From an uncultured Candidatus Cloacimonadota bacterium (GTDB lineage: Bacteria; Cloacimonadota; Cloacimonadia; Cloacimonadales; TCS61), in the NCBI GenBank assembly GCA_964441785.1, contig CAYYLA010000001.1, positions 9,565-37,559 on the forward strand: 27,995 nucleotides of DNA, given 5' to 3'. Shown here piece by piece: positions 3,459 through 25,678 of this stretch (within the stretch, counting starts at the first letter, position 1; each line of letters begins with the position of its first letter). Under the pieces are notes generated by a model, which was not told where the DNA came from, ran no database searches, and saw only the letters and a program-made list of their open reading frames with translations. A program made the translations under genes and the position numbers.

Positions 3459-3646
3459 TCTTACTTCACCAGTATATCCGCAGGTTGAAAATTATTTTAT
3501 CACAATATAATAAATGTCTAACCTTTGATATTTAAAGCGAATCTAAGCTATTATAGACAGTTTAACTTCTACTGAAAGACTCTTGTTGATTATTCAAATT
3601 ATAATCGCTCAATTCAGGTTAAAAGTCTCCTGTAAAAATCTGATTC

Positions 3647-4693: not shown

Positions 4694-4906
4694 ATCTCAA
4701 TAAATCCTTTTGCTTCTATTGCGTCAAGCATTCATACCATGTGATGTTGTAAAGAAATAAAGCGGAGGTGTAACTTAAATTACAACAAAATCGAAAGTGA
4801 AATGCCTGGGTTTGATATAAATAATTGTTCTGTATGTAAATAGCTCTTTACAGTAAAAGGGAATAAATTTTGCTTTACCAATAATAAAAGAAAAATTCAT
4901 CTGGAG

Positions 4907-8013: not shown

Positions 8014-8027
8014 TCAAATTTTGGGCA
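8011..8027 (+). promoter_or_regulatory. Candidate enhancer (UAS) motif TGATCAAATTTTGGGCA
   Basis: 17-mer pseudo-palindrome starting 136 nt before the -24 GG at 8147; 14/17 identical to 13758-13774 and 13/17 to 10260-10276. Confidence 0.45.
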
Positions 8028-8145
8028 TGATATTCATTTATTAGACAAAATAAATAATTTTGTCACATCTGAGATTTTTTGAAACATGATGTAACTCTTT
8101 TAATGGCAAATAGATGTCTTTGAATTAATATTTTCTTTTATCACT

Positions 8146-8161
8146 TGGAACAAGTCTTGTT
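8146..8161 (+). promoter_or_regulatory. Sigma54-type promoter (-24/-12)
   Basis: TGGAACAAGTCTTGTT: GG at 8147-48 with GT (variant of GC) exactly 12 nt later; upstream of the receiver and kinase 2 genes. Confidence 0.55.
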
Positions 8162-8184
8162 TATAAATTATCATGAGGGATGTT

Positions 8185-8535
8185 ATGAAAACAAAAATCA
8201 TGATAGTAGATGATAATATTTTAAGCTTAGACAGTATCTATCTGTCGCTAAAAAGCCATGGCTTTGTCGTAAGCACATTTTCATCACCATTAAAAGCATT
8301 AAGTGCTTTTGCCAATGAGCGTTTTGATGCGGTATTGAGTGATTACTACATGCCGGAGATGCGCGGAGATGAGCTGTTAAACAAGATCAAGAGTATCGAT
8401 CCAGATGTGAAGACATTCCTTTTTTCCGGTTATATTTCATCCAGCATTATGGAAAATCTGGATCTCGAGATAGCTGGAACTTTCCTGAAAAAACCCCTTG
8501 ATATAACACAAATTATCATGGCTCTGGAAGATTGA
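8185..8535 (+). CDS. Single-domain response regulator (CheY-like receiver)
   Basis: IVDDN, VLSDYYMP, FSG and KKP motifs. ATG 8185 preferred over 8173 because GAGGGA (8175-80) lies between the two. Confidence 0.88.
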   Translation: MKTKIMIVDDNILSLDSIYLSLKSHGFVVSTFSSPLKALSAFANERFDAVLSDYYMPEMRGDELLNKIKSIDPDVKTFLFSGYISSSIMENLDLEIAGTFLKKPLDITQIIMALED

Positions 8536-8586
8536 TTCTCTTGCTTCCATAAATTCAATTGTCAAAACCTGATCCAAAAGTAAAAT

Positions 8587-10257
8587 ATGTCTGAGGTTAA
8601 TATGCAAACAAAGGATAGTGATTTAGTTAGAAAATTAGCAGAAACGTCAGGTAGAGAGCGTATAGATGTTTTGCTGGAATTATCACATCATAACTGGGAA
8701 ACAGGTAAATTGATCCAGGCTTGGGATTATGTACAGGAAGCGCAATTTCTTTCGGAAGAATCAGGATATGAGATGGGGGTTGGTCAGGCACATGGGTGTA
8801 AGGCGAAGATCCATTATTCAGGGAACAAGATTGATCAGGCTTTAGAAGAGGGGTTTATTGCCCTCAGTATTTTCAGGAAAATCAATGATAAAATCGGTTT
8901 ATCAACTGTTATGAATAACCTCGGTGTTTTTCATTCTGCTATGGGTATGAAAAAAAGGTCCTTGGATTATTATCATCAAAGTAATGAGCTGGATCCTGAT
9001 AATGTGTTTGCAATTAATAATATAGGCGAGATTCTTGAAGAAGATGGTAAGGTTGACGAAGCTCTTGCTTATTATTTGAAAACAAGAGATATGGCAGAAA
9101 ATATGAAATCAAACCGAGTTTTATGTCTCGTTCATCACAATCTCGGTCGGATTTATACGGTTTTCGAGGATTACGAAAAAGCATTGAAAATGTTTGATAT
9201 CGCTTTGAAATGGAGTATTGAACTTAATCTTAATTATGATTTTATTAACACGAATATCGGTATAGGTGAGATTCATCGTATTTATGGGGATTTTGATAAA
9301 GCACAGGAGTTCCTGCTGATAGCATTGAAAAAAGCAGATACAATAGATAATGATGAATATCGTAGCTTCTGTTATACCAGCCTCATTAAACTCTACAAAG
9401 CATCAAAAAATGTTAATGAACAGAATAAATATCTTGAACTTCAACTTGAGGTTAACAAACGATTATATTCGGGTAAAGTAACCGATAAACTTGTTCAATT
9501 GGAGGCTGCTTATAATCTGGAGAAGAAGGATCTTGAATCCAGAAAACTGATAGAACAGAGTGCAAAACTCGCCTCAATCGGTGTAATGGCAGCCGGGATT
9601 ACCCATGAGATTAATCAACCACTTAATGCTATCAAAGTAAGTGCTGATAGTATTCTCTTCTGGGATAAACGTAATAAGGGCGTTATCCCCGATCTTTTTA
9701 TCAAAGAATTGAACAATATATCAAAAGGTGCGCTTCGTATCGATGAAATCATTCAACACATGCGATCATTCTGGATTACGCCAGACTTTCATGTAGAATC
9801 TGTTATTGACGTTAATGATGCTGTTGAAAGTGGCCTTTCTCTCTTAAAAAGACAGATAAGTGCCCATGGGATAAATCTGCGTAAATATCTTGCACAGGAA
9901 AAATTATTGATTAAAGCTGATATGATCTATCTTGAACAGATTGTTATAAATCTGGTTACTAATTCTATTACTGCCTTGGATAAAACCGGGAAATCTGATA
10001 AATATGTGGCAATCTTAACATCTCTTGTTAATAATAATGTTCATATCGTTTTCAGGGATAATGGAACCGGAATTTCTACTGAAAAATTGGAGCAACTATA
10101 TGATCCTTTTTATTCAACCAGTGCGCCGGGAAATGGCATGGGCCTGGGTTTAGCTATTGTTAAATACTATCTGGATAGATGTTCGGGCAGGATTGTGGCT
10201 GAAAATAATGAAGAGGGCGGCGCTACTTTTAAATTGATTTTTCCCTTAACTAACTGA
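8587..10257 (+). CDS. Second soluble TPR-repeat sensor histidine kinase, paralog of 4907-6571
   Basis: TPRs (MNNLGVFH, HHNLGRIY); shares ASIGVMAAGITHEINQPL, FWDKRN, HMRSFWxTPD and GMGLGLAIVK with kinase 1; no transmembrane helix. Confidence 0.93.
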   Translation: MSEVNMQTKDSDLVRKLAETSGRERIDVLLELSHHNWETGKLIQAWDYVQEAQFLSEESGYEMGVGQAHGCKAKIHYSGNKIDQALEEGFIALSIFRKINDKIGLSTVMNNLGVFHSAMGMKKRSLDYYHQSNELDPDNVFAINNIGEILEEDGKVDEALAYYLKTRDMAENMKSNRVLCLVHHNLGRIYTVFEDYEKALKMFDIALKWSIELNLNYDFINTNIGIGEIHRIYGDFDKAQEFLLIALKKADTIDNDEYRSFCYTSLIKLYKASKNVNEQNKYLELQLEVNKRLYSGKVTDKLVQLEAAYNLEKKDLESRKLIEQSAKLASIGVMAAGITHEINQPLNAIKVSADSILFWDKRNKGVIPDLFIKELNNISKGALRIDEIIQHMRSFWITPDFHVESVIDVNDAVESGLSLLKRQISAHGINLRKYLAQEKLLIKADMIYLEQIVINLVTNSITALDKTGKSDKYVAILTSLVNNNVHIVFRDNGTGISTEKLEQLYDPFYSTSAPGNGMGLGLAIVKYYLDRCSGRIVAENNEEGGATFKLIFPLTN

Positions 10258-10565: not shown

Positions 10566-13364
10566 ATGAAGTTGAGAATGTTTTTGTTACTTCTCATTTT
10601 ATCTTTTTCAATCGCAATCTGGGGTAATCTGATGGTGATGGAAGAAGATTTTGAGGATGGTATTCCTGAGGGTTGGACACAGGAATATGTAAGTGGAACC
10701 GTCGATTGGATAACAAGTTATGGAGGTCATCAGGCAAATCCTGAAGCACCTCATTCAGGAAATAACAACCTGTTTTTCTTTAATGAAGACACAACACCCA
10801 ATACCACACGAATACTAACACCTGCATTTGATTTAAATCCAGAATCAATCACCGTGATGAGTTTCTGGTATACCGCAGATGCCTGGGTTGGATATCAGGA
10901 TGAATTGAGGGTTTATTATCGAATTGGTGATGGTGAATGGCAAGTTCTGGGCGAATATCTGGATGATGTATCTGATTGGACACAGGTCTCTTACACTCTT
11001 CCGGAAGCAGGTGATGATATGCAGTTCTGTTTTGAAGGAACTGCGGTTTGGGGTTATGGATTATGCCTTGATGATGTTGTTGTAATGGATGATGTTCTAA
11101 GAATTTTTGTGTGGAATAATGATAATTACTCGCACTACACCGACCTTGATAATGGTGGTGAGCAGAATTGTGAAGTTGGGATAACAAATCAATTGGATGC
11201 GTTAGGATTAGATTACACCCTGGGAACAAGTTTACCATCGGATCTAAGCAATAATTTTGATATAGTATTTGTAGAGCTTGGTCTCTACTGTGTAGGTTGA
11301 GGTACTACCCCTCCAGGCTCCGTTGGAGCTTCTCAACAGGATGAATTAATTGCGTTTATGGATAATGGTGGTGCTGTTTACATGGAAGGTGCTAATGTTG
11401 CATCGGATGTTGATGGAACAGATTTTATTGAATATTTTGGTGCTGTAGCTACAAGTGCAGGTGCTGGAGCTGGTGTTATGGATGTTTTAGGGATGGATGG
11501 TACGTTTGCTGCTAATACAGCATTTGATTATCCCTATGGTACAGATACCGATTACAATCTTGATGAATTAGCAGCTGATACTGGAACGGAATTCCTCACA
11601 TGCCAGAATGAAACTCCTAGAGCTGTTTATTACAACAGTGGATCTCATCGTGCCATAATTTCATCTGTTGTTATTGGTGGCTTTAAAGATGGTGAAGGAT
11701 CAAATACAAAAGCTTCACTCATGACTCGTTATATTAACTATCTTACTGGTATTGAGGCTGCTGATATTAATATAGCTAATGAAGAAATTGATTTTGGTGT
11801 ACAATATGTGAATTATGCTTTTGATTTTGAGTTGGCTATTCAGAATTTTGGCTTGGCTGATTTGGAGATAACCTCTGTTGAGGTTGTTGGTAACGGTTTC
11901 TCAAGTACAGTAACAGGACCTTTCACACTGGAAATTGGTGAAGAATTCTTGATCCCGGTAACCTTCGAGCAATCAGCATCAGGCAATTATACTGGAACAT
12001 TAACAATTGTATCTAATGATCCTGATGAAAGTGAACTGGTTATCCCTCTCTATGCAGAATGTTTGATGCCTCCTGTATGCCAGTTACCAGGTGATACAAT
12101 TGAAGGTTATGCTCAAGAAGGTGAATCTTCTATGATGGCTTATACAATTACCAATGCCGGTGATAGTGATCTTACCTTTATGCTCAATATTGACGAAGTC
12201 GAAGAAGTTGCTCAAGTATTTACTCCTGTTTATGAAAATGTTCAACTGGGCAAGGATGAAATTGATTGGAGAGAAGGTTATATTAACACTCGTGGCTCAG
12301 GTGGACCAGATAATTTCGGGTATAAATGGAAGGATAGTAATGAAGATTGTGGTCCGGTCTATGAATGGTTTGATATATCCGATATAGGCGAAAACAGTAA
12401 CCTTACGGGAGATGACTCATCTGTTTCATTGGACTTACCATTTGAATTTGATTTCTATGGTGAACCAAAAACTTCAGTTCTGGTTTCTGATAATGGCTAT
12501 CTTACCTTTGGAGGTTCTGCAGCAGTATGGATGAATACTGAGTTGTTAGATCCAAATCCTCCAAATGACATAATATGTCCTTTCTGGGATGACTTAAATC
12601 CACAAAATGGAGGTGTTAATTATAACTATTATGATCAGGATAATGGTCGATTTATTATCCAATATGATGAATGGGCTTACTATTCTGGTGGAAGTCCTCA
12701 AACCTTCCAGGTACAACTCTATATGAACGGCAAAATCAGATTCCTCTACGAATCAATGGATGGTGGAGGAACCCCAACTATCGGTATTGAAAACTCTGTC
12801 GGTGATGATGGATTACAGATTACGTTCAATGAACCTTATGTCGAAAATGGTATGGTAATTGAGTTCTCTTGTGGCCCTGATTGGATAGATACCGATATTT
12901 CCAGTGGAACTATTGCTGCTGGTGAAAGTCAAGATATTATGTTTACATTTGATGCAATCAATTTCCACGATGGAGATTATGAGGCTGTTGCTTATCTTTC
13001 AACAAACGATCCTGCTAATCCGGAATATGTGTTACCCATTATTCTACATGTGGGAAATGTTGATGCAGATGATGATTTTATACCGACCAGAACAGCATTG
13101 TTTGATAATTATCCAAACCCATTTAACCCAGAAACAAAAATCAGTTATTCCCTCAAGAACGAGTGTGATGTAGATCTGATCGTCTATAACGTTAGAGGTC
13201 AGAAAATTAAAACACTACACCAGGGCAACCAGACTGCAGGTGCCTATGAACTGATCTGGAACGGAATGGATGATAATGATAGACCTGTTTCTTCGGGTAT
13301 CTATTACTACAGGTTGGATACTAACGATTATAGTAGTACAAAGAAGATGTTGTTATTGAAATAA
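10566..13364 (+). CDS. Secreted multidomain selenoprotein A (932 aa with Sec245 at TGA 11298-11300): signal peptide, MAM/adhesin-like domain, CxxU alpha/beta domain, choice-of-anchor-D-like Ig domains, NIDO-like domain, FlgD-Ig sorting domain
   Basis: ORFs 10566-11300 and 11358-13364 are in frame with 19 sense codons between them: ELGLYCVG-TGA-GTTPPGSVGASQQDELIAFMDNGG. Signal peptide only on the first part, sorting domain only on the second. SECIS-like hairpin follows; two paralogs have TGA at the same position. Confidence 0.9.
11315..11331 (+). other. Putative bacterial SECIS element for TGA 11298
   Basis: A-GGCTC-[CGTTG]-GAGCT-T; the 5-bp core stem starts at +16 and the loop G is at +22 from the TGA. 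Confidence 0.8.
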
Positions 13365-13964: not shown

Positions 13965-16250
13965 ATGATTCCCGGAAAAAAGATAATTTTAATCATAACG
14001 ATTTTGATTGCGATGGCTGGTTTAAGTGCACAAACAGTCCTTGTATGGAATAATGAGATCGCTTCATTTCATTTTACCGATCCCGAAACCGAAAATCAGG
14101 TTGGTGGAGAATATGGTATTACACAAGCGTTAGAAGTAAACAATGTTAACTATCAGATGGAGGACACATTACCTCAGGATTTATCAGGGTTTGATGCGAT
14201 TATCGTACTCTGTGGATCCTGGTGCGTTTCCTGAGGGTGGACAGCGCCAGGCACCGTGAGTGCTGCTGATCAAAACCTCTTGGTAGATTTTATTAATTCT
14301 GGAAAAGGTGTTTATTGGGAAGGTACAAATATTGCCTCTGATCATGAATCCACAACCCTGTGGAATATGTTTGGAGCATCCAATGTAGGTACAGGCCCCG
14401 ATAACGGTGATGTTGTAAACTTAATTGGTAATGCTAACACCTTTGCCGATGGCTTAACATTTGGATATTCACCCTATGGTGAGTATTCCAATGCCAGGGT
14501 GAATCGGCTCAATGTAACAGATGGTACTGCTTTATTGGATTCTGATAACAGTTTCACCAGGGTAGTTTATAACGATACCGGAGCGGGTAGGGTTATTGCT
14601 TCAACTATCATTTTTGGCGGAATTTATAACGAAGATGTTGTAAGTACAAGAAGTAATCTTATGGCATCCTATCTTTCCTATCTTCTTAATATTGATATTC
14701 CAGTTGCCTGGACTTCTGAGGAGATGATTGATTTTGAAACACTATTGCCTGGTACTGAGACAATGCAAACACTTTATCTGAGAAACCTTGGTATGGAGAT
14801 GCTTGAATTGTCTGATATTCAGCTTAGTGGTTCAAATTTTGTCTATCAGGGTGAAGAGAGTTACAGTTTAGATTTTGGACACTATGTTGAGTTACCGGTT
14901 ATTTTTCCCTGTGATGTAGAGGGAGAATTTTCCGAAATACTTTCCATTAACACAAATGATCCTGATAATCCGTTGATAAATGTTTCGGTTACTGGTAGTT
15001 GTTATAGTGCTCCTCAGATCTCTGTTGATGCCAGTGATTTCAACGTGTCAGTTGGGATGGGCAATAGTATGGAGACATCTCTAACCATATCAAATACAGG
15101 TGGTGGTTATCTCGATTATTATATAGAAACCCTCAATGTTACACGGGGAAGCGGTGGTCCCGATAACTTTGGATATACCTGGATCGATAGTAATGATCCT
15201 GAAGGCCCGGTTTATGAATGGTTTGATATCTCAACCATTGGCATTGATGGCGAATTATCTGGTGTTGATGATTATATTACAGTAGAACTACCAATACCAT
15301 TTCCTTTCTATGGAGAAATGCGTAGTGAGATCAAGATATCAACAAACGGATATCTGACCTTTGGCAATGATCCGGTAGATCACTCTAATGATCCTATCCC
15401 ATTTGCCATGGACCCTAACGATTATATTGCTGCTATCTGGGATGATCTTCGTACAGGCGGTGAAAGTATGCTCTACACCTATTTTGATGAAGATAGCAAC
15501 CGCTTTGTTATCCAATATCAGGATTGGAAATTCTACACTGGTGGCGGTACTGGTGACCTTGATTTCCAGATACAACTTTATCCAAATGGAGATATTTTCT
15601 ATTACTACGATAATCTGGAAGGTAGCCTTACCAGCGCTACTGTTGGTATCGAAAATCAAGATGCCAGCGATGGACTCCAGATTGTTTATAATAATGAGTA
15701 TCTGGAAAATCAGTTGGCTGTTAAAATCTCACCCAATCCAACCTGGATGGAACTCGATAATTATTCCGGATCTGTATTTCAGGATGAACCCGTCACTATC
15801 GGTATAAATGTTGATGCATCCAACCTGAATGAGGGTGTTTATAATGCCTTAATTAAAATTCATAATTCCGATGAAGATAATGATTTGATCGAGATACCAG
15901 TAGAATTAACAGTAACTGCTACAGCTTCTGAGGATGAAATTATCCCCCATATACCTGCATTAAATCAAAATTATCCCAACCCTTTCAACCTCACAGCTGC
16001 CGGTCGTGGACCAGTTACAACGATTGATTTCTTTATCCCTGATGATGGGATCTCTGCTGATATCGTGGTTTATAATATGAAGGGGCAGGCGATAGTGACA
16101 TTGGCTCGTAATCAGTATGAAAGAGGTTACTATAGTGTTCACTGGGATGGTAAAGATAGCACTGGAAATGAAGTCAGCGCTGGAATATATTTCTATAAAT
16201 TAACAACAGACAGACATAGCCAGACTAAGAAAATGATTCTAATGAAGTAA
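13965..16250 (+). CDS. Secreted multidomain selenoprotein B (761 aa with Sec90 at TGA 14232-14234): signal peptide, CxxU alpha/beta domain, Ig-like domains, NIDO-like domain, FlgD-Ig sorting domain
   Basis: ORFs 13965-14234 and 14256-16250 are in frame with 7 sense codons between them: VLCGSWCVS-TGA-GWTAPGTVSAADQNLLVDFINSGKG. AGGAG RBS before 13965 and none before 14256; SECIS-like hairpin; paralog of A (shared TRGSGGPDNFGYxWxDSN...GPVYEWFDIS). Confidence 0.9.
14250..14264 (+). other. Putative bacterial SECIS element for TGA 14232
   Basis: GGCAC-[CGTGA]-GTGCT; stem at +16, loop G at +22; compensatory A-T pair where A and C have T-A. Confidence 0.8.
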
Positions 16251-16292
16251 ATAAGGTTCCTTATGAAAATGGTTTGGAAGCAGGGAGTAGAA

Positions 16293-16607
16293 ATGAATCT
16301 GATAGAAGATCTTGCTCAGATAGGATTAACGCTTAATGAATCCAAGGTTTATCTGTCTCTACTGAAAGGTGAACAGTTTTCGGCTGCTCAGTTGGCTAAA
16401 GAGTCAAAGATAAATAGAACAAAAATCTACTGTGTTCTTGGGAATTTGATGAAGCGGGGATTTTGTGAAGAAGTACCAGGAAGGGTAAGGATGTTTCGTG
16501 CGATGGATCCAAAAATCGCAATGAATAAATTAATAAGTTTACATGAAAATAATCTGAAAACAGCGGTTCGGGTAACCGAGATTTTAGCGAGAAGTTTTCA
16601 GACTTAA
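16293..16607 (+). CDS. TrmB-family winged-helix regulator, DNA-binding domain only
   Basis: LAQIGLTLNESKVYLSLL...AAQLAKESKINRTKIYCVLGNLMKRGF...FRAMDP; GGGAG RBS favours ATG 16293 over 16263. Confidence 0.8.
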   Translation: MNLIEDLAQIGLTLNESKVYLSLLKGEQFSAAQLAKESKINRTKIYCVLGNLMKRGFCEEVPGRVRMFRAMDPKIAMNKLISLHENNLKTAVRVTEILARSFQT

Positions 16608-16621
16608 GGAAAGGAGCAGAA

Positions 16622-17074
16622 GTGAAACGAACAATTAATCTATTAGTGTTGGTAGTAATGCTGGTAATTTCTCAACTTTTACTGGCAGATGGGATGGAAC
16701 CGGAAGCGTTAAAGAAAGATGAGGTAAAAATTGTAACGTTATCTGTTGAAAATGGCATATTGCAGGCTCATTACATGATCCCTGAAGATATGCATCAGAC
16801 ATTACAGGAAGACTACTTTTATCTTGATGTTGAACATGGTGATGGTGTAGTTTTTGAAGAAACTGTCTATCCCGAAGGTCATGTAGATGAAGATGGATAC
16901 ATAAATTTTGAAAAGGAAGTTACCTTAACTAAGTCCTTTAAATTATTAGATAATGCTAAACCGGAAGATGTTAAAATTACTGTGTATGCTGGCTATCAAT
17001 ACTGTTACGAAACATATTGTGAACCTCCTGTTGAGGTTGAATTTGAGATAAATCTTACTGAGGGCAAAAAATAG
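16622..17074 (+). CDS. Exported protein resembling the DsbD N-terminal Ig-like domain
   Basis: Signal peptide; beta-rich body with IPEDMHQ; terminal YQYCYETYCEPP cysteine pair positioned like the nDsbD QGC...CYPP motif. Confidence 0.65.
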   Translation: MKRTINLLVLVVMLVISQLLLADGMEPEALKKDEVKIVTLSVENGILQAHYMIPEDMHQTLQEDYFYLDVEHGDGVVFEETVYPEGHVDEDGYINFEKEVTLTKSFKLLDNAKPEDVKITVYAGYQYCYETYCEPPVEVEFEINLTEGKK

Positions 17075-17083
17075 GGGATAACT

Positions 17084-17236
17084 ATGAAGCTTAAGAAATT
17101 TCTCACATTTTGGATGCCATTGATCATCATCGTACTGGCAATCAATTTTATTCTTATGGGTATTGGAGTGGAAGAGTTTCCCGAAATGGCAAGCAAGGCA
17201 ATTAATCTTTGCCTGGGCTGAATCGGGTTAGGGTAG
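17084..17236 (+). CDS. Small membrane selenoprotein (50 aa with Sec46 at TGA 17219-17221), CD1871A-like CxxC family with CxxU; absent from the ORF track
   Basis: MKLKKFLTFWMPLIIIVLAINFILMGIGVEEFPEMASKAINLCLG-TGA-IGLG-TAG. GGGGA RBS before 17084. The C-terminus matches the family pattern KAxxxCxxCIGxG and the gene sits directly before a 4Fe-4S binding protein; hairpin downstream of the TGA. Confidence 0.85.
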
Positions 17237-17247
17237 GTGGAACCTAT
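17233..17247 (+). other. Putative SECIS element for TGA 17219, overlapping the TAG stop and the next start region
   Basis: GTAGGT-[GGA]-ACCTAT, 6 bp including one G-T pair; first loop G at +18. Confidence 0.6.
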
Positions 17248-18115
17248 GAAGAAAAAAATCAACCTTTTCAGTAGAAACAAGATCAGACTGTTTGTCCTGT
17301 TTCTGGCACTTTTTGTTATCAATGGTCATTTCTATGTAAAATATTACGAAGGAGTGATGGAGATTCTTAAGCATATTCCATTGCCTGTGTTAAATTGTTA
17401 CTCTTCTCCGTCAACTGTCTGGGCTTGTCCTATTGGTTTGTTGCAACACTTCATTGTTATTGGATCTTTTTCCTTTGCAACTCTGGGCATTTTACTGTTG
17501 ATTGGAGCCTTTATCGGGCGATGGGCTTGTGGGTGGCTCTGTCCTTTTGGTTTTCTGCAGGAAGCATTATATCATATTCCAACCAGAAAATTTAAATTAC
17601 CTATGTGGACGAAATATATCAAATACGTTATCTTTGTGGCAGGTGTGATAATCTTACCGATGTTTTTAAAGAATGAGATAGGTATGACGGAGACCTGGTT
17701 CTGCAATTTCTGTCCGGCCGGTTGTCTCGAAGCGGGTATCCCTGTTCCTATTATGGATCCCAGTCTGAGATATCTCATCGGGACAATGTATTGGATAAAA
17801 ATTGCAATATTGATTTTGGTTGTGATTATCCCAAGTATTTTTATAAAACGACCTTTCTGCTCGATTATCTGCCCGCTTGGAACTTTGATGGGGGTCTGTA
17901 ATTCATTCAGTTTCTTGAAGCTTCGTTTTGACAGGAGTAAGTGTGTCGATTGCGGATTATGTTCTACCGATTGCCCCATGGGTTTAAATCCAACTACAGA
18001 TTATGGCTCTCCTGAATGCATCCTTTGCATGAACTGTACTAAAGAGTTTTGCAGTGCCATAAAACCAGAATTTAATAATAAATTTGTTGAAAGAAAAAAA
18101 GAGATAAAGGAGTAA
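17246..18115 (+). CDS. NapH/MauN/RdxA-like polytopic membrane 4Fe-4S binding protein
   Basis: Hydrophobic helices; WACPIG, RWACGWLCPFG, FCNFCPAG, PFCSIICPLG; ferredoxin motifs CVDCGLCSTDCP and CILCMNCTKEFC. Start is ATG 17246 or GTG 17237. Confidence 0.88.
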   Translation: MKKKINLFSRNKIRLFVLFLALFVINGHFYVKYYEGVMEILKHIPLPVLNCYSSPSTVWACPIGLLQHFIVIGSFSFATLGILLLIGAFIGRWACGWLCPFGFLQEALYHIPTRKFKLPMWTKYIKYVIFVAGVIILPMFLKNEIGMTETWFCNFCPAGCLEAGIPVPIMDPSLRYLIGTMYWIKIAILILVVIIPSIFIKRPFCSIICPLGTLMGVCNSFSFLKLRFDRSKCVDCGLCSTDCPMGLNPTTDYGSPECILCMNCTKEFCSAIKPEFNNKFVERKKEIKE

Positions 18116-18658
18116 ATGATGAGAAAACTACTGATGTTAATGTCGATAATGATTCTGATGACAGGGTTGCTCTCTGCAAGTGAATCGGAAATGAAGGTGA
18201 TACCTGATTTTTCTCTTAATGATATTGATGGTAATGAGGTAAACCTCTATACTATTTTAGATGAAGGTAAATATGTTGTGATAGATTTTTGGGCTACCTG
18301 GTGTGTGCCCTGCTGTAAAGCCCTACCTCATTTAAATACATTCCACGAAAAATATGATGATGTTGTTGTTATCGCTATATCCGAAGATAGCAAACGCATG
18401 GCGAAAAAAGCATCAGCTTATATCAAGGGATTGGATTACTCTTTTATTACCTTACTGGATCCAAAGGGTGAAGTTAAGAAACTTCTTGATGTTGATGTAC
18501 TTCCTGAAACATTTTATGTAAGACCTGATAAATCAGTAGCCTGGAGACATTTTGGATACAAGAAGGGCGAAGAGATAAGTATGGAAGAAGAATTGGTTAA
18601 AATGCTTGAAGAAAATAAAATTCCTGCTCAAAGTTCCGAAGCAGATGTTCAAAAATAG
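18116..18658 (+). CDS. Exported TlpA-family thiol-disulfide oxidoreductase
   Basis: Signal peptide; PDFSLNDIDG, VIDFWATWCVPCCKALP, VLPETFYV (cis-Pro loop). Confidence 0.92.
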   Translation: MMRKLLMLMSIMILMTGLLSASESEMKVIPDFSLNDIDGNEVNLYTILDEGKYVVIDFWATWCVPCCKALPHLNTFHEKYDDVVVIAISEDSKRMAKKASAYIKGLDYSFITLLDPKGEVKKLLDVDVLPETFYVRPDKSVAWRHFGYKKGEEISMEEELVKMLEENKIPAQSSEADVQK

Positions 18659-18669
18659 TGGAGTTGGAA

Positions 18670-19761
18670 ATGAAGAAAATTTTTATGTTAATACCTGTCA
18701 TTATTATGCTGATGGTTGGATGCGAATTACTGGATCATGATCCTTTTAACGATCAGAAAATTGAGGAAATGTTTGATGAATTCTCGGCTGCATTCTCTAC
18801 GATTTCTGCTGATGATGTGTCTGATGTAATGGTATTCTATGATCAGGATTACTTTCATGATTTACAGGATGTTTACGGTAGAGAAGAATTTTATCTCTCT
18901 CTGTTTCAAAGCTATGGTGAAGATATTACCTTTGAATGCTATCTGACAGATTATAAAGAGAACCTGGAAATTGAGTGGGTTCTTGGTGTAAACTATGAGG
19001 TAGACGGTATTCAAATGGTAGAAAACTTTGAATTTGTTGAGTATCTAAAAGATAACAACGGTGAGTACTATTTCTATGGAAATCAGGTAAATCCTCCAGC
19101 TTTGGATCCAGATAAACCAATCGTTTTTGTTGAATATGGTACAGCAGAAAATTGTGGTAATTGTCCTCCAGCATCATCCGAATTGCATCACATGCAATTG
19201 GAACATGGTGCTCAGTTTATTTATGTAACCTATTGCGCTGGTGAACCAATGAGTACCTATATCGATTTTGCCACTTATTATAACGAAACAGCTCAACCTG
19301 TTACAATTTTCGGCGGTCAATATAAGATTGTTGGTGCTTCAGAAGACGATTTAGCAGAGTTTGATCAACGCTATAATCAAGTATTATCAGGGACACCTGA
19401 AGCATTCCTGTCCAATATTACCTGGAGTGATGATGGAGAGATGATTGATGGTACTGTTGATGTCGATTTGCAGGGTGTATCTACGGCTAATCTTGTTTTG
19501 ATGGCTGCACTTGTTGATGAACGACCCGAACTATATTACGATAATGGTGGCAACAGAATCTACAATGTGCTTTTTGCTGTTGGTGAGGAACAGGTAGGTG
19601 GCTCAGGAACTGCAGAATTCAGAATTGAATATGATCTGCCAAGCTATTCTGATACAATGCCTGCTACAACAAAATTAATTGTCTGGCTGCAAACTAAGGA
19701 TGCCAATTATAATCCTGATACCTGTAAAATCCATACAGCAGCTGAAATAGATCTATTTTAA
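18670..19761 (+). CDS. Lipoprotein with an N-terminal NTF2/SnoaL-like segment and an Omp28-like thioredoxin domain (CGNC)
   Basis: Lipobox LMVGC; VFVEYGTAENCGNCPP; QPVTIFGG; C-terminal Ig-like region ending LIVWLQ. GGAG RBS favours ATG 18670. Confidence 0.72.
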   Translation: MKKIFMLIPVIIMLMVGCELLDHDPFNDQKIEEMFDEFSAAFSTISADDVSDVMVFYDQDYFHDLQDVYGREEFYLSLFQSYGEDITFECYLTDYKENLEIEWVLGVNYEVDGIQMVENFEFVEYLKDNNGEYYFYGNQVNPPALDPDKPIVFVEYGTAENCGNCPPASSELHHMQLEHGAQFIYVTYCAGEPMSTYIDFATYYNETAQPVTIFGGQYKIVGASEDDLAEFDQRYNQVLSGTPEAFLSNITWSDDGEMIDGTVDVDLQGVSTANLVLMAALVDERPELYYDNGGNRIYNVLFAVGEEQVGGSGTAEFRIEYDLPSYSDTMPATTKLIVWLQTKDANYNPDTCKIHTAAEIDLF

Positions 19762-19770
19762 GGAGTAACG

Positions 19771-20364
19771 ATGAAGAAGTTAGTAATAATTTTAACCCTT
19801 ACAATAATTTCAATAATGTTGAGTGCGGTTGAATTGGGTACTGCTCCCGATTTTCAATTGGAAAATGAACGTGGTGATCAGGTTAAGCTATCTGATTTCA
19901 ATGATAAACTTGTACTATTAGATTTCTGGGCTACCTGGTGCGTTCCCTGCTGTAAAGAATTGCCCCATTTATCCAAACTGCAGGAAAAATATGGTGATGA
20001 TATTCAAGTGCTTGCAATAACAATAGATAAGGCTAGACAGGTTTCCAAGGCTAAAGCTTACGTTAAATCAAATCGTTTCAAATTCATGACGCTTTTCGAT
20101 CCAAAGCAAGAGGTTGCTGCTCTCTACAACATGGTAAATCCTCCTCGTACTCTTCTTATCGATCCCTCTGGTAAAATAATCTTCCAACATGATGGTTATA
20201 AACGCGGAGATGAAGTGCATATTGAAGAAGAAATTGTAAAATGGATTGAAGCAAAATCTATCAAAACTCCTGTTGAAAATGCTGTTGGTGATGGTGATAT
20301 AAAACAACCGGAAACTCCAAAATTTGAGATGAAAAAAATGGAACAAACAAAGGGTGAGAAATAA
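19771..20364 (+). CDS. Second exported TlpA-family thiol-disulfide oxidoreductase
   Basis: Signal peptide; APDFQLENERG, LLDFWATWCVPCCKELP, NPPRTLLID. Confidence 0.92.
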   Translation: MKKLVIILTLTIISIMLSAVELGTAPDFQLENERGDQVKLSDFNDKLVLLDFWATWCVPCCKELPHLSKLQEKYGDDIQVLAITIDKARQVSKAKAYVKSNRFKFMTLFDPKQEVAALYNMVNPPRTLLIDPSGKIIFQHDGYKRGDEVHIEEEIVKWIEAKSIKTPVENAVGDGDIKQPETPKFEMKKMEQTKGEK

Positions 20365-21830
20365 TGAAAAAGATAATATTAATTACACTCTTGTTAATTG
20401 TTGGATCTATTTTGCTGGCTGATGACTTTTCTATCAGTGGTATCAATGAAGCACACTATGTCTATAAAAGCGCTGAAGATTCACTTAATCAATATTTCCA
20501 GGATAAATTTAAATTCTTACTGCAATATAATGATTTTCGCTTTGGTATGACCTATGTAGGCGAATTCCCAAAATATCGTAAATTTGAACCATTGGCAGAA
20601 TTGGATCCATCCAACCTGCATAATGAGTGGGAAGAACGTTATGTGGAATTTAACACAGGCGAATATATGGTTAAAGCAGGTAATTTCGATGCCCTTATTG
20701 GATCAGGTATGATATTGCATGCCTACTATAACGAAGATCTTGATGAGGATTATCGACTCGATGGTTTCTATGGACGGGTTGTTAAAGATGCCTGGTCGCT
20801 ACAGGCTTTTCATGGTATTTTGCCAACCGAAGATGCCTCTTTTGAAGCAGATGATGTTATCAATGGTGCCGATCTGGAGATAACGCCTATCGCTCCATTA
20901 ACTCTTGGATTTGCCGCTCTCTCTAATCAGGAATATCAAGGGGCTGATAATTATAATTACAGCATTAGAGAAGTGATATCCGGGCGAATGGGATTCTATC
21001 ATGACTATTTTGAAGTAAATGCCGAATATGCTGAAAGTAAACAGTATCATAATGAATTCGGTGGTACAAAATACGGCAACGCTTTCTACTCTGATTTGAA
21101 TGTTTATGCTGGTATGTTTACAGTTACAGGTGCTTATAAAAACTATGATAAATTTGTGCATCGTCTTAATGAACTTCCAACCGTAAATCACAGTGAAGAA
21201 CCATTGGTGGATTATGGATATGATGTAGGTTCAGGTGAAGAAGGTTATATGGCTGTGGTTAGATTCGTGCCAAATTTCGAGAATGAACTGGTTGTTAATT
21301 TTGCCAACGGTTGGTCTAAAGATGATACCATTGAACAGATTGATATTCATGCCGAATATCGTAGAGATTTTGAATCCTTTACGCTTATCACAGAATATAG
21401 CCATCTGGAAAACACCTGGGAGATAGATAATGTAAACTATTGGGCACAGGAAATGACTCCAAAAATCAGTGTGGATTTCTTATTAGGCGATATGCCAACT
21501 ATGCTTAAAGCTGAATATAAGATAGAAAAACATGAGGAATATACCCATATCAGTGAAGAGACCATAAAGTACGAACCAACACTTCAGGCTGATATCGGTA
21601 TCAAGCAATACGCAATATCTCTGTTGGCAAGTTATCACTATCTTGATGGTGAAGATATCAATGCGAATACTCCTAAAATCGGGGTTGAATTTGTAGCTCC
21701 TTTATGGAATCATACTGAACTTAAACTCTTTGCCGGTAGCGAAAAGGGTGGTCTTGTCTGCCGTAACGGTGTTTGTAATTATCAGGCTCCTTTCGAGGGT
21801 GCACGAATAGATCTTACTACAAGATTTTAA
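20364..21830 (+). CDS. Outer-membrane beta-barrel protein, DUF6029-like, with a C-terminal cysteine pair
   Basis: Signal peptide; alternating amphipathic strands; GNFDALIGSGMIL; terminal KGGLVCRNGVCNYQAPFEGARIDLTTRF ending in an aromatic residue. Confidence 0.7.
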   Translation: MKKIILITLLLIVGSILLADDFSISGINEAHYVYKSAEDSLNQYFQDKFKFLLQYNDFRFGMTYVGEFPKYRKFEPLAELDPSNLHNEWEERYVEFNTGEYMVKAGNFDALIGSGMILHAYYNEDLDEDYRLDGFYGRVVKDAWSLQAFHGILPTEDASFEADDVINGADLEITPIAPLTLGFAALSNQEYQGADNYNYSIREVISGRMGFYHDYFEVNAEYAESKQYHNEFGGTKYGNAFYSDLNVYAGMFTVTGAYKNYDKFVHRLNELPTVNHSEEPLVDYGYDVGSGEEGYMAVVRFVPNFENELVVNFANGWSKDDTIEQIDIHAEYRRDFESFTLITEYSHLENTWEIDNVNYWAQEMTPKISVDFLLGDMPTMLKAEYKIEKHEEYTHISEETIKYEPTLQADIGIKQYAISLLASYHYLDGEDINANTPKIGVEFVAPLWNHTELKLFAGSEKGGLVCRNGVCNYQAPFEGARIDLTTRF

Positions 21831-21850: not shown

Positions 21851-22900
21851 ATGAAGAAAATTTTCTTAACTTTAATTGTGCTTGCATTTGCTCTTTTATC
21901 TGCAACACAGCTAAATGTTATCAGTGAACTGTTTACTGTTATTCCCGATTGTTGATGTATTGATGACTACGCTCGTGTAGCGTTGGACGACTATGCTTTA
22001 CAAGCTCCCCATGCTATACCGTTGTGGTGGAGTATGGAGTCCGAAATGCCATCACCAATGGCTGAAGAACGTTTTACTCTCTATCAGGGTGAGAATACTC
22101 CGCACGCATTTTTTGGTCGTATCGAAGAGGTTGACGCATGGAATTGTATGGATTATGTTAACTTCTGTAGTGCCTATGATGCTGTCGCCAGTAATACAGC
22201 TTATGCTGAGATTGATCTCGATTTTTATTCTACTTCTGCTGGCCAATATTCGGTTGCTGCAGAGGTAAATCTTGTAGAAGATGTTATAACGACAAACAAC
22301 AAAATATTCTTTGTAATAGTTGGAAAACTAACTGGAGAATCTCGTGACCCGGGATATTGGAATAATCGCGTTATCGCTGCCTCTGAATCTCAGGATTTCT
22401 CACTTTTAACAAGCGGTGAAACAGCCTCTTTTTCAGCAGATTTTGCCCTCGACCTTTCTGACTATGCTGACCATGGAGCTTATGAAGAGGAATACCTGCA
22501 CGCTGTTGCTATTATCCAATCCTATGATAATCTGATGATTCTTCAAAGTGAGATTGTACAGTTCGGTCTGTCTGATTCGCCTGACTCTGACATTGTTCCA
22601 GCTAATGTTTCTTTGAAACAGAACTGGCCTAATCCCTTTAATCCAGCACAAACAGGTCGTGGCCCTGCAACAACGATAGAATTTACAACCAGAAAAGCTG
22701 CATCAACAGAACTCTCTATCTATAACCTGAAAGGACAAAAAGTGATAACATTGGTTAATCAAAATCTTGAAGCTGGGGATTATTCATATTCATGGTCTGG
22801 TAGTGATGATAATGGACATGAGGTTAGCTCGGGTGTTTATTACTATATCTTAAAATCAGCCGAATCCGTCGAAACCAGAAAAATGCTTTTAATGAAATAA
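21851..22900 (+). CDS. Secreted Omp28-like thioredoxin-fold selenoprotein (349 aa with Sec35 at TGA 21953-21955, Cys-Sec-Cys motif) with FlgD-Ig sorting domain
   Basis: GAGG RBS then MKKIFLTLIVLAFALLSATQLNVISELFTVIPDC-TGA-CIDDYARVAL, in frame with ORF 21983-22900. TPHAFFG cis-Pro loop; C-terminal NWPNPFNP...RKMLLMK; hairpin follows the TGA. Confidence 0.85.
21969..21983 (+). other. Putative SECIS element for TGA 21953
   Basis: ACGCT-[CGTGT]-AGCGT, perfect 5 bp; loop G at +20. Confidence 0.72.
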
Positions 22901-23309: not shown

Positions 23310-24017
23310 ATGTTAACGTTATTTGAAGAACTTACTTTGGCCCTTTATGGAAACCCTGGTGTTGCTTTGGCCGCTTCACTTCTTTGGGGCATTCTCAGTA
23401 TTCTTATCAGCCCTTGCCACCTTGCTGCAATCCCCCTGGTCGTCGCTTTTATCAATGATCAGAAGGAGATAACAACCGGTAAGGCATTCAGGATTTCCTT
23501 TATGTTTTCTCTGGGAATCTTGATAACCCTGGTTGCTGTTGGTCTGATAACGTCTCTCACAGGCCTGATTCTTGGAAGTACCGATATGATAATGCGCATC
23601 GTTATCAGCATCGTGTTACTATTTGTCGGTTTATACTTTCTTGGAGTGGTCCCATTACCCGATTTTGGTGGTGTATCCAATAAACGAATGTCCAGGAATC
23701 CCTATGTTAGTGGGTTAATCCTGGGTCTATTTTTTGGGATTGCTCTTGGACCTTGTGCCTTCGCATTTATGGCACCAATTCTGGGGATTGTGATGCAGAA
23801 TATTGAAACGGGATTTCTATTTTCTATAGCTCTTCTGGTCATGTTTCTGATTGGACATTGTGGTGTTTTGATATTGGCTGGAACCTTTACAAGATTGGTG
23901 AAGCAATTTCTCGCTTGGGATGCTGCCGCAAAGGGCACACTCATTATCAGAAAAATCTGTGGAATTCTAATTATTATCGGAGCAGTTTACACCTTTGTTA
24001 AAGCTGTTCATTTTTAG
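23310..24017 (+). CDS. ccdA: CcdA/DsbD transmembrane electron transporter
   Basis: Six hydrophobic segments; ISPCHLAAIP and ALGPCAFAF, the two conserved PC motifs. Confidence 0.9.
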   Translation: MLTLFEELTLALYGNPGVALAASLLWGILSILISPCHLAAIPLVVAFINDQKEITTGKAFRISFMFSLGILITLVAVGLITSLTGLILGSTDMIMRIVISIVLLFVGLYFLGVVPLPDFGGVSNKRMSRNPYVSGLILGLFFGIALGPCAFAFMAPILGIVMQNIETGFLFSIALLVMFLIGHCGVLILAGTFTRLVKQFLAWDAAAKGTLIIRKICGILIIIGAVYTFVKAVHF

Positions 24018-24033
24018 AAGACAAAAGAAAAGA

Positions 24034-24103
24034 GAAAAAAGAAAAAAGAAAAAAGAATAAAGAATAAAGAATAAAGAATAAAGAATAAAGAATAAAGAAT
24101 AAA
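24034..24103 (+). repeat. Intergenic heptamer tandem repeat (GAAAAAA)3(GAATAAA)7
   Basis: Counted directly: three GAAAAAA units at 24034-54 followed by seven GAATAAA units at 24055-103. Confidence 0.95.
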
Positions 24104-24142
24104 GGTTAAGCCTTGTATGTTTAGAAGTAAAAGGAGAAAATA

Positions 24143-24382
24143 ATGGATATAAAAATTCTAGGAACCGGATGTCCAAAATGCAATAAGCTTGAGAAAAATG
24201 TCAGGAAAGCTGTGGAAGAAATTGGATTAGATGCAGAGATTACAAAGATTTCTGATCTGGAAGAGATAATGAGTTTTGGTGTAATGATGACGCCTGGTTT
24301 GGTAGTAGATGGAGAACTGAAATCTTCGGGAAAATTATTAAAACCGAAAGATATAACAAAATTATTGAAGGATAAATTATAA
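24143..24382 (+). CDS. Small cytoplasmic thioredoxin-like protein (MTH895-type redox-active disulfide protein)
   Basis: MDIKILGTGCPKC...GVMMTPGLVVDG; AAGGAG RBS. Confidence 0.92.
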   Translation: MDIKILGTGCPKCNKLEKNVRKAVEEIGLDAEITKISDLEEIMSFGVMMTPGLVVDGELKSSGKLLKPKDITKLLKDKL

Positions 24383-24777
24383 TGAAAAAGATCATAATTA
24401 CAGTGTTTCTCGCTGTCTTTGCTTTTCTCTTGTTTGGATCGGAAACCATGGTTGGAAAAGCTGATACCACTTCTGTTTCAACAACAATCACGTTTATAGA
24501 ACTTGGATCAATAACCTGTGTACCCTGTAAGCAGATGGAAAAAGTGTTAGAAGCAACGGAAGAGAAATATGGCGATCAGATTGAAGTAATATTCTATGAT
24601 ATCATGAAAGATCGATCAAAATCTAAAGAGTACAATGTTAGGATAATGCCGACCCAGGTTTTTCTTAATAGTGATGGAAAAGAGATTCATCGTCATATTG
24701 GATACTATCCACAGAAGCAATTAGATGAATTTCTGCAGAAACAGGGATTAATTCCTCTGGAGAATAATGATGAATAA
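24382..24777 (+). CDS. Exported thioredoxin-family protein
   Basis: Signal or anchor peptide; FIELGSITCVPCKQM; VRIMPTQVF; HIGY. Confidence 0.9.
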   Translation: MKKIIITVFLAVFAFLLFGSETMVGKADTTSVSTTITFIELGSITCVPCKQMEKVLEATEEKYGDQIEVIFYDIMKDRSKSKEYNVRIMPTQVFLNSDGKEIHRHIGYYPQKQLDEFLQKQGLIPLENNDE

Positions 24778-25678
24778 ACTGATTGCGGTTGTGTTAGTTT
24801 TTCTTGCGATCAGTTGCATGTTAGATGCGCACGAAATAGCTCTGCACTATGCTCTTGAAGGAACCGAAACCTATGGTGGTGATGAGATAAGGGGATGGGA
24901 AGTAGATTTTTTAACCCTGGATTGGGGTGATAATGATTTCTCTGATTATGGTGTAACTGTTAAATTTACATTCAGTAAATCAGATGTCTCAAAAATTGTC
25001 TTAACCAAAGGTTGGAAACGATTTGATTTAGGAAAAAACTGGAATCTTACTGTGGGTAAACAACAATATGGTTTCGGATTATTCAGTGGCTCCGGTTGTG
25101 GATGAGGTGGTTCGGGATCCGTGGGATCCGGCTGCGTGAGTTATTATTCATTTAAACAGTTGATTGCAGATGCTGATTTTAACCTTAAAGTGGATAAACA
25201 GATTGGTGATCTCAATGGTCAGATTTATATTGGACATACCCTGAAAGAGGAAGCTGCTGTCGGTTCCAGAATTTCCTGGGATTTTAACAATCTTGAATTA
25301 GGTGTTGCAGCACTTTGGCTCGATTATCAGGATGAAGAACAACAGCTGACAAACTATGAATTTGATCTGCAATATACCTTGCCAAAATACATAAATGTGA
25401 AAACTCAAATTGGTAATATCGATGATGGTAATAATGATACAGATGACTTAAACTTTTTTTGTCTGATTCAAAAGGATGAACCATTTTACATCCCATTTGT
25501 AAAAGAGATCATTCCCTATGCTGGTATCTCCACAAGAGATGAAATGAAAGAAAATAGTGTAATAATGGGACTGAACTTTTCACCTGTAACTGATGCGTAT
25601 ATCAAAATAGAACATGTGCTGGATTCCAGCGAAGATGTCGATCCCAGGAGCGATATTCAGGTCGGTTACACGTTCTAA
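24770..25678 (+). CDS. Outer-membrane beta-barrel selenoprotein (about 302 aa, Sec at TGA 25103-25105) with a Gly/Ser-rich C-G-U...C loop
   Basis: ORFs 24767-25105 and 25121-25678 are in frame with 5 sense codons between them: GKQQYGFGLFSGSGCG-TGA-GGSGSVGSGCVSYYSFK. Signal peptide only on part 1; terminal beta-signal DIQVGYTF only on part 2; hairpin follows the TGA. Confidence 0.85.
25115..25129 (+). other. Putative SECIS element for TGA 25103
   Basis: GGATC-[CGTGG]-GATCC (6 bp if C-G closes a GTG loop); loop G at +16. Confidence 0.72.

Follow-up and report, generated by a model that had tools for sequence, protein, structure and literature searches.

A short open reading frame from an uncultured Candidatus Cloacimonadota bacterium raises two linked questions. 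The first is whether a TGA codon, separated from the final stop by only four codons, ends the protein or specifies selenocysteine (Sec); the second is what so small a protein might do. The stretch of DNA analyzed here, termed the window, spans 27,995 nucleotides (assembly GCA_964441785.1, contig CAYYLA010000001.1, positions 9,565 to 37,559 of the forward strand), and all coordinates below refer to it. A predicted 50-residue micro-selenoprotein gene occupies 17084–17236 of the plus strand, as defined by translation, hidden Markov model (HMM) match, hydropathy, and orthologs. Its translation consists of MKLKKFLTFWMPLIIIVLAINFILMGIGVEEFPEMASKAINLCLG, the internal stop TGA at 17219–17221, the residues IGLG, and the terminal stop TAG at 17234–17236. 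Codon comparison across relatives indicates that this UGA is very probably decoded as Sec. With moderate confidence, we propose that the product is a Sec-form CD1871A subunit of a NapH-like iron-sulfur (Fe-S) membrane protein, in which Cys43 and Sec46 would form an outward-facing exit for electrons destined for exported redoxins.

A membrane microprotein of the CD1871A family

The microprotein begins with a Lys-rich stub followed by a single, strongly hydrophobic helix (approximately residues 6–28, by hydropathy). Behind the helix, an acidic linker (EEFPEM) precedes the hydrophobic tail at the C-terminus, KAINLC43-L-G-U46-IGLG-COOH. The in-frame TGA (17219–17221, plus strand) corresponds to residue 46, read as Sec, and aligns with the second Cys of the family CxxC motif. 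Charge amounts to +3 before the helix and to a net −2 after it, a distribution that predicts an N-in/C-out topology with the CxxU tail at the outer face of the membrane. The degenerate DNA pattern K-A-x-x-L-C-L-G-(TGN)-I-G-L-G occurs once in the window, with zero occurrences expected from 100 shuffles. The TGA codon is invariant, with no variant letter, in contigs from three sequencing runs of one marine sediment metagenome, a study from which the window itself may derive. A first-pass annotation, made from the DNA letters, had described one transmembrane helix followed by KAINLCLG-U-IGLG and a stop; translation and hydropathy show that description to be accurate in every detail.

With U written as Cys, the microprotein matches the NCBIfam model NF040920 (CD1871A family CXXC motif-containing protein) at 33.7 bits (E 2.4e-8). 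The match covers model positions 1–38 of 38 and exceeds the curated cutoff of 32 bits. The peptide that stops at the TGA scores 24.0 bits, below the same cutoff; the HMM check proposed in the first-pass annotation thus recovers the family only when the TGA is read through. Pfam returned no match for the microprotein.

Relatives were gathered in steps of increasing sensitivity. A single-peptide word-index search yielded four relatives and an exhaustive search of representatives with the Cys form yielded six, and a profile was needed for the rest. This family profile, built from 13 sequences comprising the clade and its first distant matches, retrieved at least 3,866 protein clusters (90% identity) at E ≤ 1. 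Among them are NCBI-named CD1871A family proteins of Blautia, Oscillospiraceae, and Clostridium, with E-values of approximately 1e-12 to 1e-14. In the best 120 of the 3,866 clusters, 109 end in CxxC[IV]G.G-COOH, consistent with the tail KA...CxxCIGIG that the first-pass annotation had given for CD1871A-type proteins; 81 of these read CLECIGIG. Eight of the same 120 clusters end directly after C-L-G, and all eight come from the window's own clade (KAI[NT]LCLG). The microprotein fits the CD1871A format of approximately 45–60 residues, an N-terminal helix, and a terminal CxxC-[IV]-G-x-G-COOH, with Sec in place of the second Cys. It appears to be the Sec form of this family, agreeing with it in every membership feature that could be compared at the sequence level.

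Public annotation of close relatives follows the truncated product. One Sec-form gene (P0052, locus L013, JAWOEN010000178.1) is annotated as a 55-residue 'hypothetical protein R6U84_09145' ending in CLG, and another (P0053, locus L012, JAGGWK010000063.1) as a 40-residue product from an internal Met. In GCA_023136225.1, the Cys form likewise bears only the name 'hypothetical protein'.

Codon survey and constraint downstream of the UGA

Loci for the codon survey came from four sources. Exact-protein look-ups were made for truncated matches and, separately, for Cys-form relatives. The partner protein encoded downstream served as query against species-representative genomes, which gave four loci, all from Cloacimonadota. 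Finally, Joint Genome Institute (JGI) metagenomes were scanned with a degenerate DNA pattern that accepted any TGN at the critical codon and hence carried no bias towards Cys or TGA. Relatives with a taxonomic label belong to Cloacimonadota.

The survey produced 13 distinct TGA-containing DNA versions from metagenomes and Cloacimonadota metagenome-assembled genomes (MAGs). All 13 continue with Ile-Gly-Leu-Gly and then TAA or TAG. The four codons after the TGA draw on ATC, ATT, or ATA for Ile, all four GGN codons for the first Gly, TTA, TTG, CTA, or CTG for Leu, and all four GGN codons for the last Gly. Across these codons, which in the window fill 17222–17236 together with the true stop TAG (plus strand), at least 10 substitutions were counted, distributed 1/0/9 by codon position and all synonymous. 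The 12 nucleotides after the microprotein stop carry at least 23 changes, spread across all positions. The chance that a random substitution in the four codons is synonymous was estimated at about 0.28; therefore, ten synonymous changes out of ten would arise with a probability of the order of 1e-6 or less.

Cys codons occupy the UGA column in relatives. A Candidatus Cloacimonetes MAG with the same operon (L008, L009, and L014) has TGT and the tail CLGCIGLG, and a second in-clade locus with the same operon (L026) has TGC and the tail CLSCIGIG. Three more distant relatives (L021, L024, and L027) carry TGT or TGC at this column, where Cys is also the residue in every outgroup relative surveyed, with thousands of Firmicutes-type relatives having TGT or TGC. 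Alignment of the Cys forms with the microprotein runs collinearly to the last residue. The first-pass annotation had argued for Sec decoding from Cys homologs and had suggested surveying TGA against TGC and TGT in orthologs. That survey, with 13 TGA versions on one side and Cys codons in two in-clade relatives and the outgroups on the other, sustains its argument. A missing family match or orthologs ending at the TGA, which it had named as grounds for abandoning the idea, did not occur.

A UGA-linked hairpin between the two genes

A SECIS-like (selenocysteine insertion sequence) hairpin, GUAGGU-GGA-ACCUAU, with 6 bp and a GGA loop, lies at 17233–17247 on the plus strand, 11 nucleotides past the UGA, and was recognized by comparison across lineages. 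Because only four codons follow Sec, the hairpin falls past the stop codon, occupying the 9 nucleotides between the genes and extending two bases into the partner start codon. Its 5' arm holds the microprotein TAG, its stem and loop include the partner's Shine-Dalgarno sequence, AGGUGGA, and its 3' arm reaches the partner ATG.

A comparable hairpin lies 11–16 nucleotides 3' of the UGA in 12 of the 12 TGA versions checked, the thirteenth (L018) being the same as L012 across this stretch. Stems measure 4–7 bp, and the loops of 3–4 nucleotides read GGA, GGU, or AGGU. The stems differ by lineage, with at least four unrelated types: UAGGU/ACCUA, UAGGC/GCCUG, UCAGUU/AACUGA, and GAGUAA/UUACUC together with GAAGUAA/UUACUUC. 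They were compared by script, after a MAFFT alignment of the hairpins had proved inconsistent with the structure. At arbitrary positions of the window, such a hairpin occurs with a frequency between 1.1% (at least 5 bp) and 2.7% (at least 4 bp). Its position and G-containing loop agree with the loose bacterial SECIS consensus (fdhF-type SECIS, bSECISearch criteria).

The hairpin is missing from all five Cys loci. In four of these five, the two genes are 0–6 nucleotides apart or overlap, and the spacer measures 21 nucleotides in L024. The hairpin may recruit SelB and support translational coupling, both at once, the coupling role being speculation. In the Sec forms, it may couple partner translation to complete read-through.

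The NapH-like partner protein

The partner gene (17246–18115, plus strand) encodes a 289-residue NapH-like membrane protein, delimited by its Fer4_5 match, ferredoxin motifs, AlphaFold model, and charge distribution. ATG 17246 was taken as its start because orthologs begin there with MK(K/N/F). The Pfam domain Fer4_5 matches with an E-value of 5e-14 in three stretches (52.3 bits against a cutoff of 22), and the C-terminus holds two-cluster ferredoxin motifs. The protein fails the NapH and MauN cutoffs (TIGR02163, 36.6 against 213 bits; NF007013, 32.3 against 234 bits) and lies far below the NosR cutoff, which makes it NapH-like rather than NapH. The first-pass annotation had placed a NapH-like 4Fe-4S protein directly downstream of the microprotein; both the position and the wording were apt. 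Its further statement, that CD1871A-type genes precede genes for 4Fe-4S proteins, held in every context examined. In each of them, the microprotein gene is followed within 0–35 nucleotides, or with an 8-nucleotide overlap, by a Fer4_5 gene of 284–308 residues. These contexts comprise the Cloacimonadota loci and five otherwise unrelated neighborhoods, including those of NCBI-named Blautia-type and Clostridium members. None of 120 partner homologs is a natural fusion with the microprotein.

The AlphaFold model of the partner (pLDDT, the predicted local distance difference test, 89.7) contains four long helices. Foldseek and HMM searches of the PDB matched only the C-terminal ferredoxin domain and returned no solved structure for the membrane part. 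Charges of +5/0/+4/−2/+5 for the N-terminus, loop 1, loop 2, loop 3, and the segment after the fourth transmembrane helix predict that the CX3CP motifs (C95/C99 and C205/C209) and the 2x[4Fe-4S] domain are cytoplasmic, with loops 30–68 and 142–182 outside. In this predicted topology, C51, C61, C153, C156, and C160 lie in outward loops, and a C-out microprotein would place its CxxU on the same face. C51, C61, and C156 are conserved in at least 119 of 120 partner homologs. Across the wider partner family, the outward loops carry the motifs NCYSCP...ACP and WFCKxxCP.

The Cloacimonadota clade departs from these motifs in some details. Ser, Thr, or Val replaces C54 of the wider family, and the second motif is shortened to CxxCP. 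An extra Cys, C160 (CPAGC), occurs in the window partner and part of the clade, in 9 of 120 aligned sequences. These changes are present in both Sec and Cys lineages and are thus not tied to the Cys-to-Sec change.

A conserved thiol-redox operon

In Cloacimonadota, the pair belongs to an eight-gene operon that is conserved in Sec and Cys lineages alike and encodes, in order, TrmB, DsbD_N, the microprotein, the NapH-like protein, a redoxin, a lipoprotein, a second redoxin, and DUF6029. In the window, all of these genes lie on the plus strand. Domain search and conserved context define the first gene as a TrmB-family helix-turn-helix regulator (16263–16607). Immediately upstream of the microprotein, 16622–17074 encodes an exported DsbD_N-like protein with a signal peptide and the motif YQYCYETYCEPP; it matches PF11412 at 25.7 bits (cutoff 25), a domain with an immunoglobulin (Ig) fold and a C..C pair. 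Downstream of the partner follow two exported TlpA/ResA-like redoxins with WCVPC motifs (18116–18658 and 19771–20364), assigned from AhpC-TSA, Redoxin, and Thioredoxin_8 matches; their best NCBIfam similarities are to ResA, TlpA, StoA, and DsbE. Between them, 18658–19761 encodes a lipoprotein with a CGNC motif, whose orthologs show a faint DUF1223 match. The last conserved gene (20364–21830) encodes a DUF6029 protein with a signal peptide, probably of the outer membrane; both this gene and that of the lipoprotein were defined by domain search and conserved context. All non-membrane partners carry signal or lipoprotein peptides. Of the five contexts from beyond the clade, two include a redoxin near the pair, as an abutting lipoprotein redoxin in L027 and two genes upstream in L021.

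Two Firmicutes-type contexts differ in their surroundings. The CD1871A/Fer4_5 pair stands beside desulfoferrodoxin and a hybrid-cluster (prismane) protein in L033 (4001–7241) and after a HAMP histidine kinase in L031 (2742–5015). These hint at an oxidative-stress or redox-sensing setting with no fixed pathway.

Proposed mechanism

From the conserved adjacency, the gene overlap, and the operon content, we infer, as the first-pass annotation had, that the microprotein is a redox subunit of the partner Fe-S protein. In the proposed sequence of events, SelB and tRNA-Sec would decode the UGA after recruitment through the hairpin that begins 11 nucleotides downstream. The microprotein would be a subunit of the NapH-like protein, with a cytoplasmic N-terminus and a C-L-G-U-I-G-L-G tail exposed on the outward side of the membrane. 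The 2x[4Fe-4S] domain in the cytoplasm would take up electrons, which would pass through the Cys-rich four-helix membrane domain. At the outer face, Cys43 and Sec46 would cycle between selenosulfide and thiol/selenol, acting as a two-electron exit site. Thiol/selenol-disulfide exchange would pass the electrons on to the exported DsbD_N-like and TlpA/ResA-like proteins of the same operon. The pair would in this way perform the task of the DsbD/CcdA membrane domain, fed by Fe-S clusters. FTR and HdrB provide a chemical precedent, in which an Fe-S cluster reduces an adjacent disulfide. A published proposal views NapH-like proteins as modular conduits that carry electrons across the membrane and work with a variable extracytosolic mediator (PMC8238504).

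A broader proposal is more tentative, and we would not expect it to hold in full. According to it, CD1871A and its NapH-like partner constitute an unrecognized and widespread two-gene transmembrane reductase that would supply reducing power to the outside of the cell through Fe-S clusters, in place of the cysteine relay of DsbD/CcdA, and in which Cloacimonadota would have converted the outward-facing CxxC to CxxU. The hairpin would occlude the microprotein stop together with the Shine-Dalgarno sequence and start of the partner; consequently, synthesis of the partner may be coupled to successful Sec insertion.

Several observations weigh against the electron-exit proposal or its parts. Three of the five out-of-clade contexts (L024, L031, and L033) contain no nearby redoxin, so the thiol-relay output may be specific to the operon and not a property of the family. 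A CcdA-like protein and a thioredoxin are encoded 1.5 kb downstream, and the cell is thus not obviously short of a conventional conduit. The topologies of microprotein and partner derive from the positive-inside rule only. As for decoding, the 28-kb window contains no sel genes and no tRNA gene, tRNA-Sec included. The hairpin is weak (−5 to −7 kcal/mol), single-sequence folding is no better than that of shuffles (z about 0), and Rfam gave no relevant match, either for the window at gathering threshold or for the site at permissive E-values. Folding energy by itself cannot identify the SECIS, which leaves the contrast between lineages as the informative evidence. The hairpin criteria were set after the data had been seen, and the lineages compared are not independent. 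Since the loop coincides with the partner Shine-Dalgarno sequence, the structure could serve translation initiation instead of, or besides, SelB binding.

Alternative explanations

One alternative, which we regard as unlikely, gives Cys43 and Sec46 the role of metal ligands that, together with partner C51, C61, C153, C156, and C160, would hold an Fe-S cluster or some other metal on the outward side of the membrane. The five to six conserved Cys in the two outward loops of the partner exceed the needs of a simple disulfide relay, and the spacing within the family consensus tail C-L-E-C-I-G-I-G does not vary. Metal ligation by Sec or Cys is established in other selenoproteins, and published tables include predicted Fe-S and 2Fe-2S binding selenoproteins. 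Nonetheless, a CxxU or CxxC on a flexible C-terminal tail, encoded near thioredoxin-fold and DsbD_N partners, is typical of thiol-disulfide exchange. A periplasmic Fe-S cluster would also need export or assembly machinery, and the operon gives no hint of it. The ligand and redox roles are compatible, as an FTR- or Hdr-like site places a cluster beside a redox-active pair.

It is improbable that the electrons flow in the opposite direction, with the selenosulfide oxidizing exported thiols and passing electrons inward to Fe-S clusters or quinone. Such a system would be a DsbB/VKOR-like disulfide generator for an anaerobe. NapH is regarded as a quinol-interacting subunit, and a role alongside reductases as well as oxidases has been put forward for NapH-like modules (PMC8238504). 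The window contains no DsbB or VKOR gene, and Cys/Sec pairs occur in neighboring secreted proteins. Set against this direction, characterized DsbD_N-like and TlpA/ResA/DsbE-like proteins belong to reducing pathways, and it is these that the operon proteins resemble by best NCBIfam similarities; no DsbA-like protein is encoded in the operon.

We consider it very improbable that the TGA is a genuine stop, in which case the gene would yield a 45-residue peptide with one Cys and the downstream conservation would be regulatory or reflect ribosome binding for the next gene. Gene callers and NCBI do annotate truncated products of 40–55 residues (for example, P0052), the region contains the partner Shine-Dalgarno sequence, and the hairpin alone is thermodynamically unremarkable. 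Against a genuine stop, the 12 nucleotides after the TGA vary only synonymously in the microprotein frame, while the next 12 change freely. The post-TGA codons always specify the family-invariant I-G-L-G-COOH before an in-frame TAA or TAG, Cys forms are collinear to the final residue, and the truncated peptide falls under the family cutoff.

TGA is the ordinary stop of at least three domain-complete genes of the window (a response regulator, a sigma-54 activator, and a histidine kinase), with domain matches that reach the protein end; the code is therefore not reassigned, and a reassigned UGA code was rejected. Reading of the UGA as Cys, Trp, or Gly through a suppressor or reassigned code is scarcely credible: some uncultured lineages reassign UGA and no sel genes are visible within the window, but UGA terminates these genes, occurs once per reading frame and always beside Cys (CxxU/CxU) with a downstream hairpin, alternates with Cys in relatives, which together with the hairpin is a Sec signature, and belongs to a lineage, the Cloacimonetes, for which a 'Cloacimonetes type' tRNA-Sec has been described (PMC5330540).

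Other TGA-containing genes and genomic surroundings

Four other long open reading frames in the window each contain one in-frame TGA, three in a CxxU and one in a CGU motif; downstream of every one of these codons lies a hairpin whose loop contains GU. Like the tRNA-Sec described for Cloacimonetes, these frames count in favor of Sec decoding. Three encode secreted proteins: 10566–13364 (TGA 11298–11300, YCVGUGTTPPGSVGA), 13965–16250 (TGA 14232–14234, WCVSUGWTAPGTVSA), and 25821 to the window end (TGA 26826–26828, YCVGUGVTPPGSVGA). The fourth, at 24767–25678, has its TGA at 25103–25105 within GSGCGUGGSGSVGSGC, followed by a GGAUCC-GUG-GGAUCC hairpin. Folding at the four UGA sites is likewise no more stable than that of shuffles.

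The three large secreted reading frames share the module LG(L/V)YCVGUG(T/V)TPPGSVGA, with LCGSWCVSUGWTAPGTVSA as a variant. All three have signal peptides and a hairpin with a GUN-type loop about 14 nucleotides past the TGA. The two complete ones contain Ig-like and NIDO-like domains and a C-terminal sorting domain of type IX secretion. These features suggest a family of CxxU selenoproteins that are extracellular or located at the cell surface. The flanking secreted candidates are not conserved beside the operon in relatives and, for that reason, were not built into the mechanism.

A second thiol/selenol cluster extends over 23310–25678. It comprises a CcdA/DsbD_TM protein (23310–24017), an exported thioredoxin (24382–24777) with weak matches to the NCBIfam selenoprotein-system models TsoX, SaoT, and TsoB, and the TGA-containing frame 24767–25678. 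Further type IX secretion cargo, with CarboxypepD_reg, FlgD_ig, and Por_Secre_tail domains, is encoded at 1–3006 and 21983–22900, and 3096–10257 holds two sets of a TPR histidine kinase, a response regulator, and a sigma-54 activator. The region around these genes is dense in secreted-protein and regulatory genes.

Novelty and significance

Neither the 2022 'complete list' of prokaryotic selenoprotein families (PMC9312934) nor a May-2026 review table that uses NCBIfam accessions (PMC13188914) includes the CD1871A family. The text of the BSepDB paper (PMC13326102) contains no mention of it, and no papers came up in literature searches for CD1871A and the NCBI product names. On present comparisons, the microprotein appears to represent a new selenoprotein family, as the Sec form of a known but uncharacterized Cys family.

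If correct, this assignment would add a family missing from both the 2022 and May-2026 tables. Its member, with 50 residues and a membrane anchor, would be very short for a selenoprotein. Genes of this kind escape standard annotation, as the truncated peptide falls below the cutoff of its own HMM and is labeled hypothetical or left uncalled. The operon also offers a first functional handle on the CD1871A/Fer4_5 pair, which is common and includes Blautia- and Clostridium-type members. The placement of the pair among DsbD_N-like and TlpA/ResA-like exported proteins leads to a testable prediction, namely an Fe-S-fed alternative to DsbD/CcdA, and Sec at the second motif position suggests which residue may be reactive. 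The function of this widespread two-gene module is a more interesting question than the Sec form itself.

Comparison with known systems

The closest comparison is the CD1871A family itself (NF040920). The microprotein shares its length of 45–60 residues, the N-terminal transmembrane helix, and the C-terminus K-A-x-x-x-C-x-x-C-[IV]-G-[ILV]-G, as well as a gene position directly upstream of, or overlapping, a gene for a Fer4_5 4Fe-4S membrane protein of approximately 290 residues. It differs in the TGA at the second Cys codon, in a CLGU motif instead of the dominant CLEC, in the hairpin between the two genes, and in its setting within a Gram-negative-type periplasmic thiol-redox operon. Public annotation, moreover, cuts these members short, leaving a peptide of 24 bits against a cutoff of 32.

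Among known selenoproteins, KCU-star (NF033934) and UXX-star (NF041114 and NF041211; PMC9312934, PMC13188914) likewise carry Sec a few residues from the stop and were recognized through apparent C-terminal truncation relative to Cys homologs. With Sec so near the stop, any SECIS must lie outside the coding region, in those proteins as in the microprotein. Unlike them, the microprotein is membrane-anchored, ends in CxxU plus four residues, and comes with an obligate partner, an Fe-S membrane protein; the families are apparently unrelated in sequence.

The DsbD/CcdA pathway, which leads to TlpA, ResA, and CcmG, resembles the operon in that the latter supplies a DsbD_N-like domain and two TlpA/ResA-like redoxins. 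The membrane component differs, as the NapH-like Fe-S protein and the CxxU microprotein would take its place and the electron source would be of the Fe-S/ferredoxin type instead of cytoplasmic thioredoxin. PF02683 (DsbD_TM) has no match in either the microprotein or the partner; the DsbD_TM gene at 23310–24017 is separate.

NapH/NosR/PceC-type modules (PF12801; Meheust et al. 2021, PMC8238504) share with the partner four transmembrane helices, CX3CP motifs, and a cytoplasmic 2x[4Fe-4S] domain. Such modules have been proposed to carry electrons between the cytoplasm or membrane and an extracytosolic mediator (PMC8238504). In the operon described here, this mediator would be a separate CxxU/CxxC peptide together with thioredoxin-fold proteins, not a flavin mononucleotide (FMN)-binding domain or NapG.

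FTR and HdrB, finally, offer an analogy only, in that they use one-electron Fe-S transfer to achieve the two-electron reduction of a disulfide. Published selenoprotein tables include Sec forms of FTR and HdrA. FTR and HdrB are soluble and cytoplasmic and have no sequence or fold relationship to the CD1871A/NapH-like pair.

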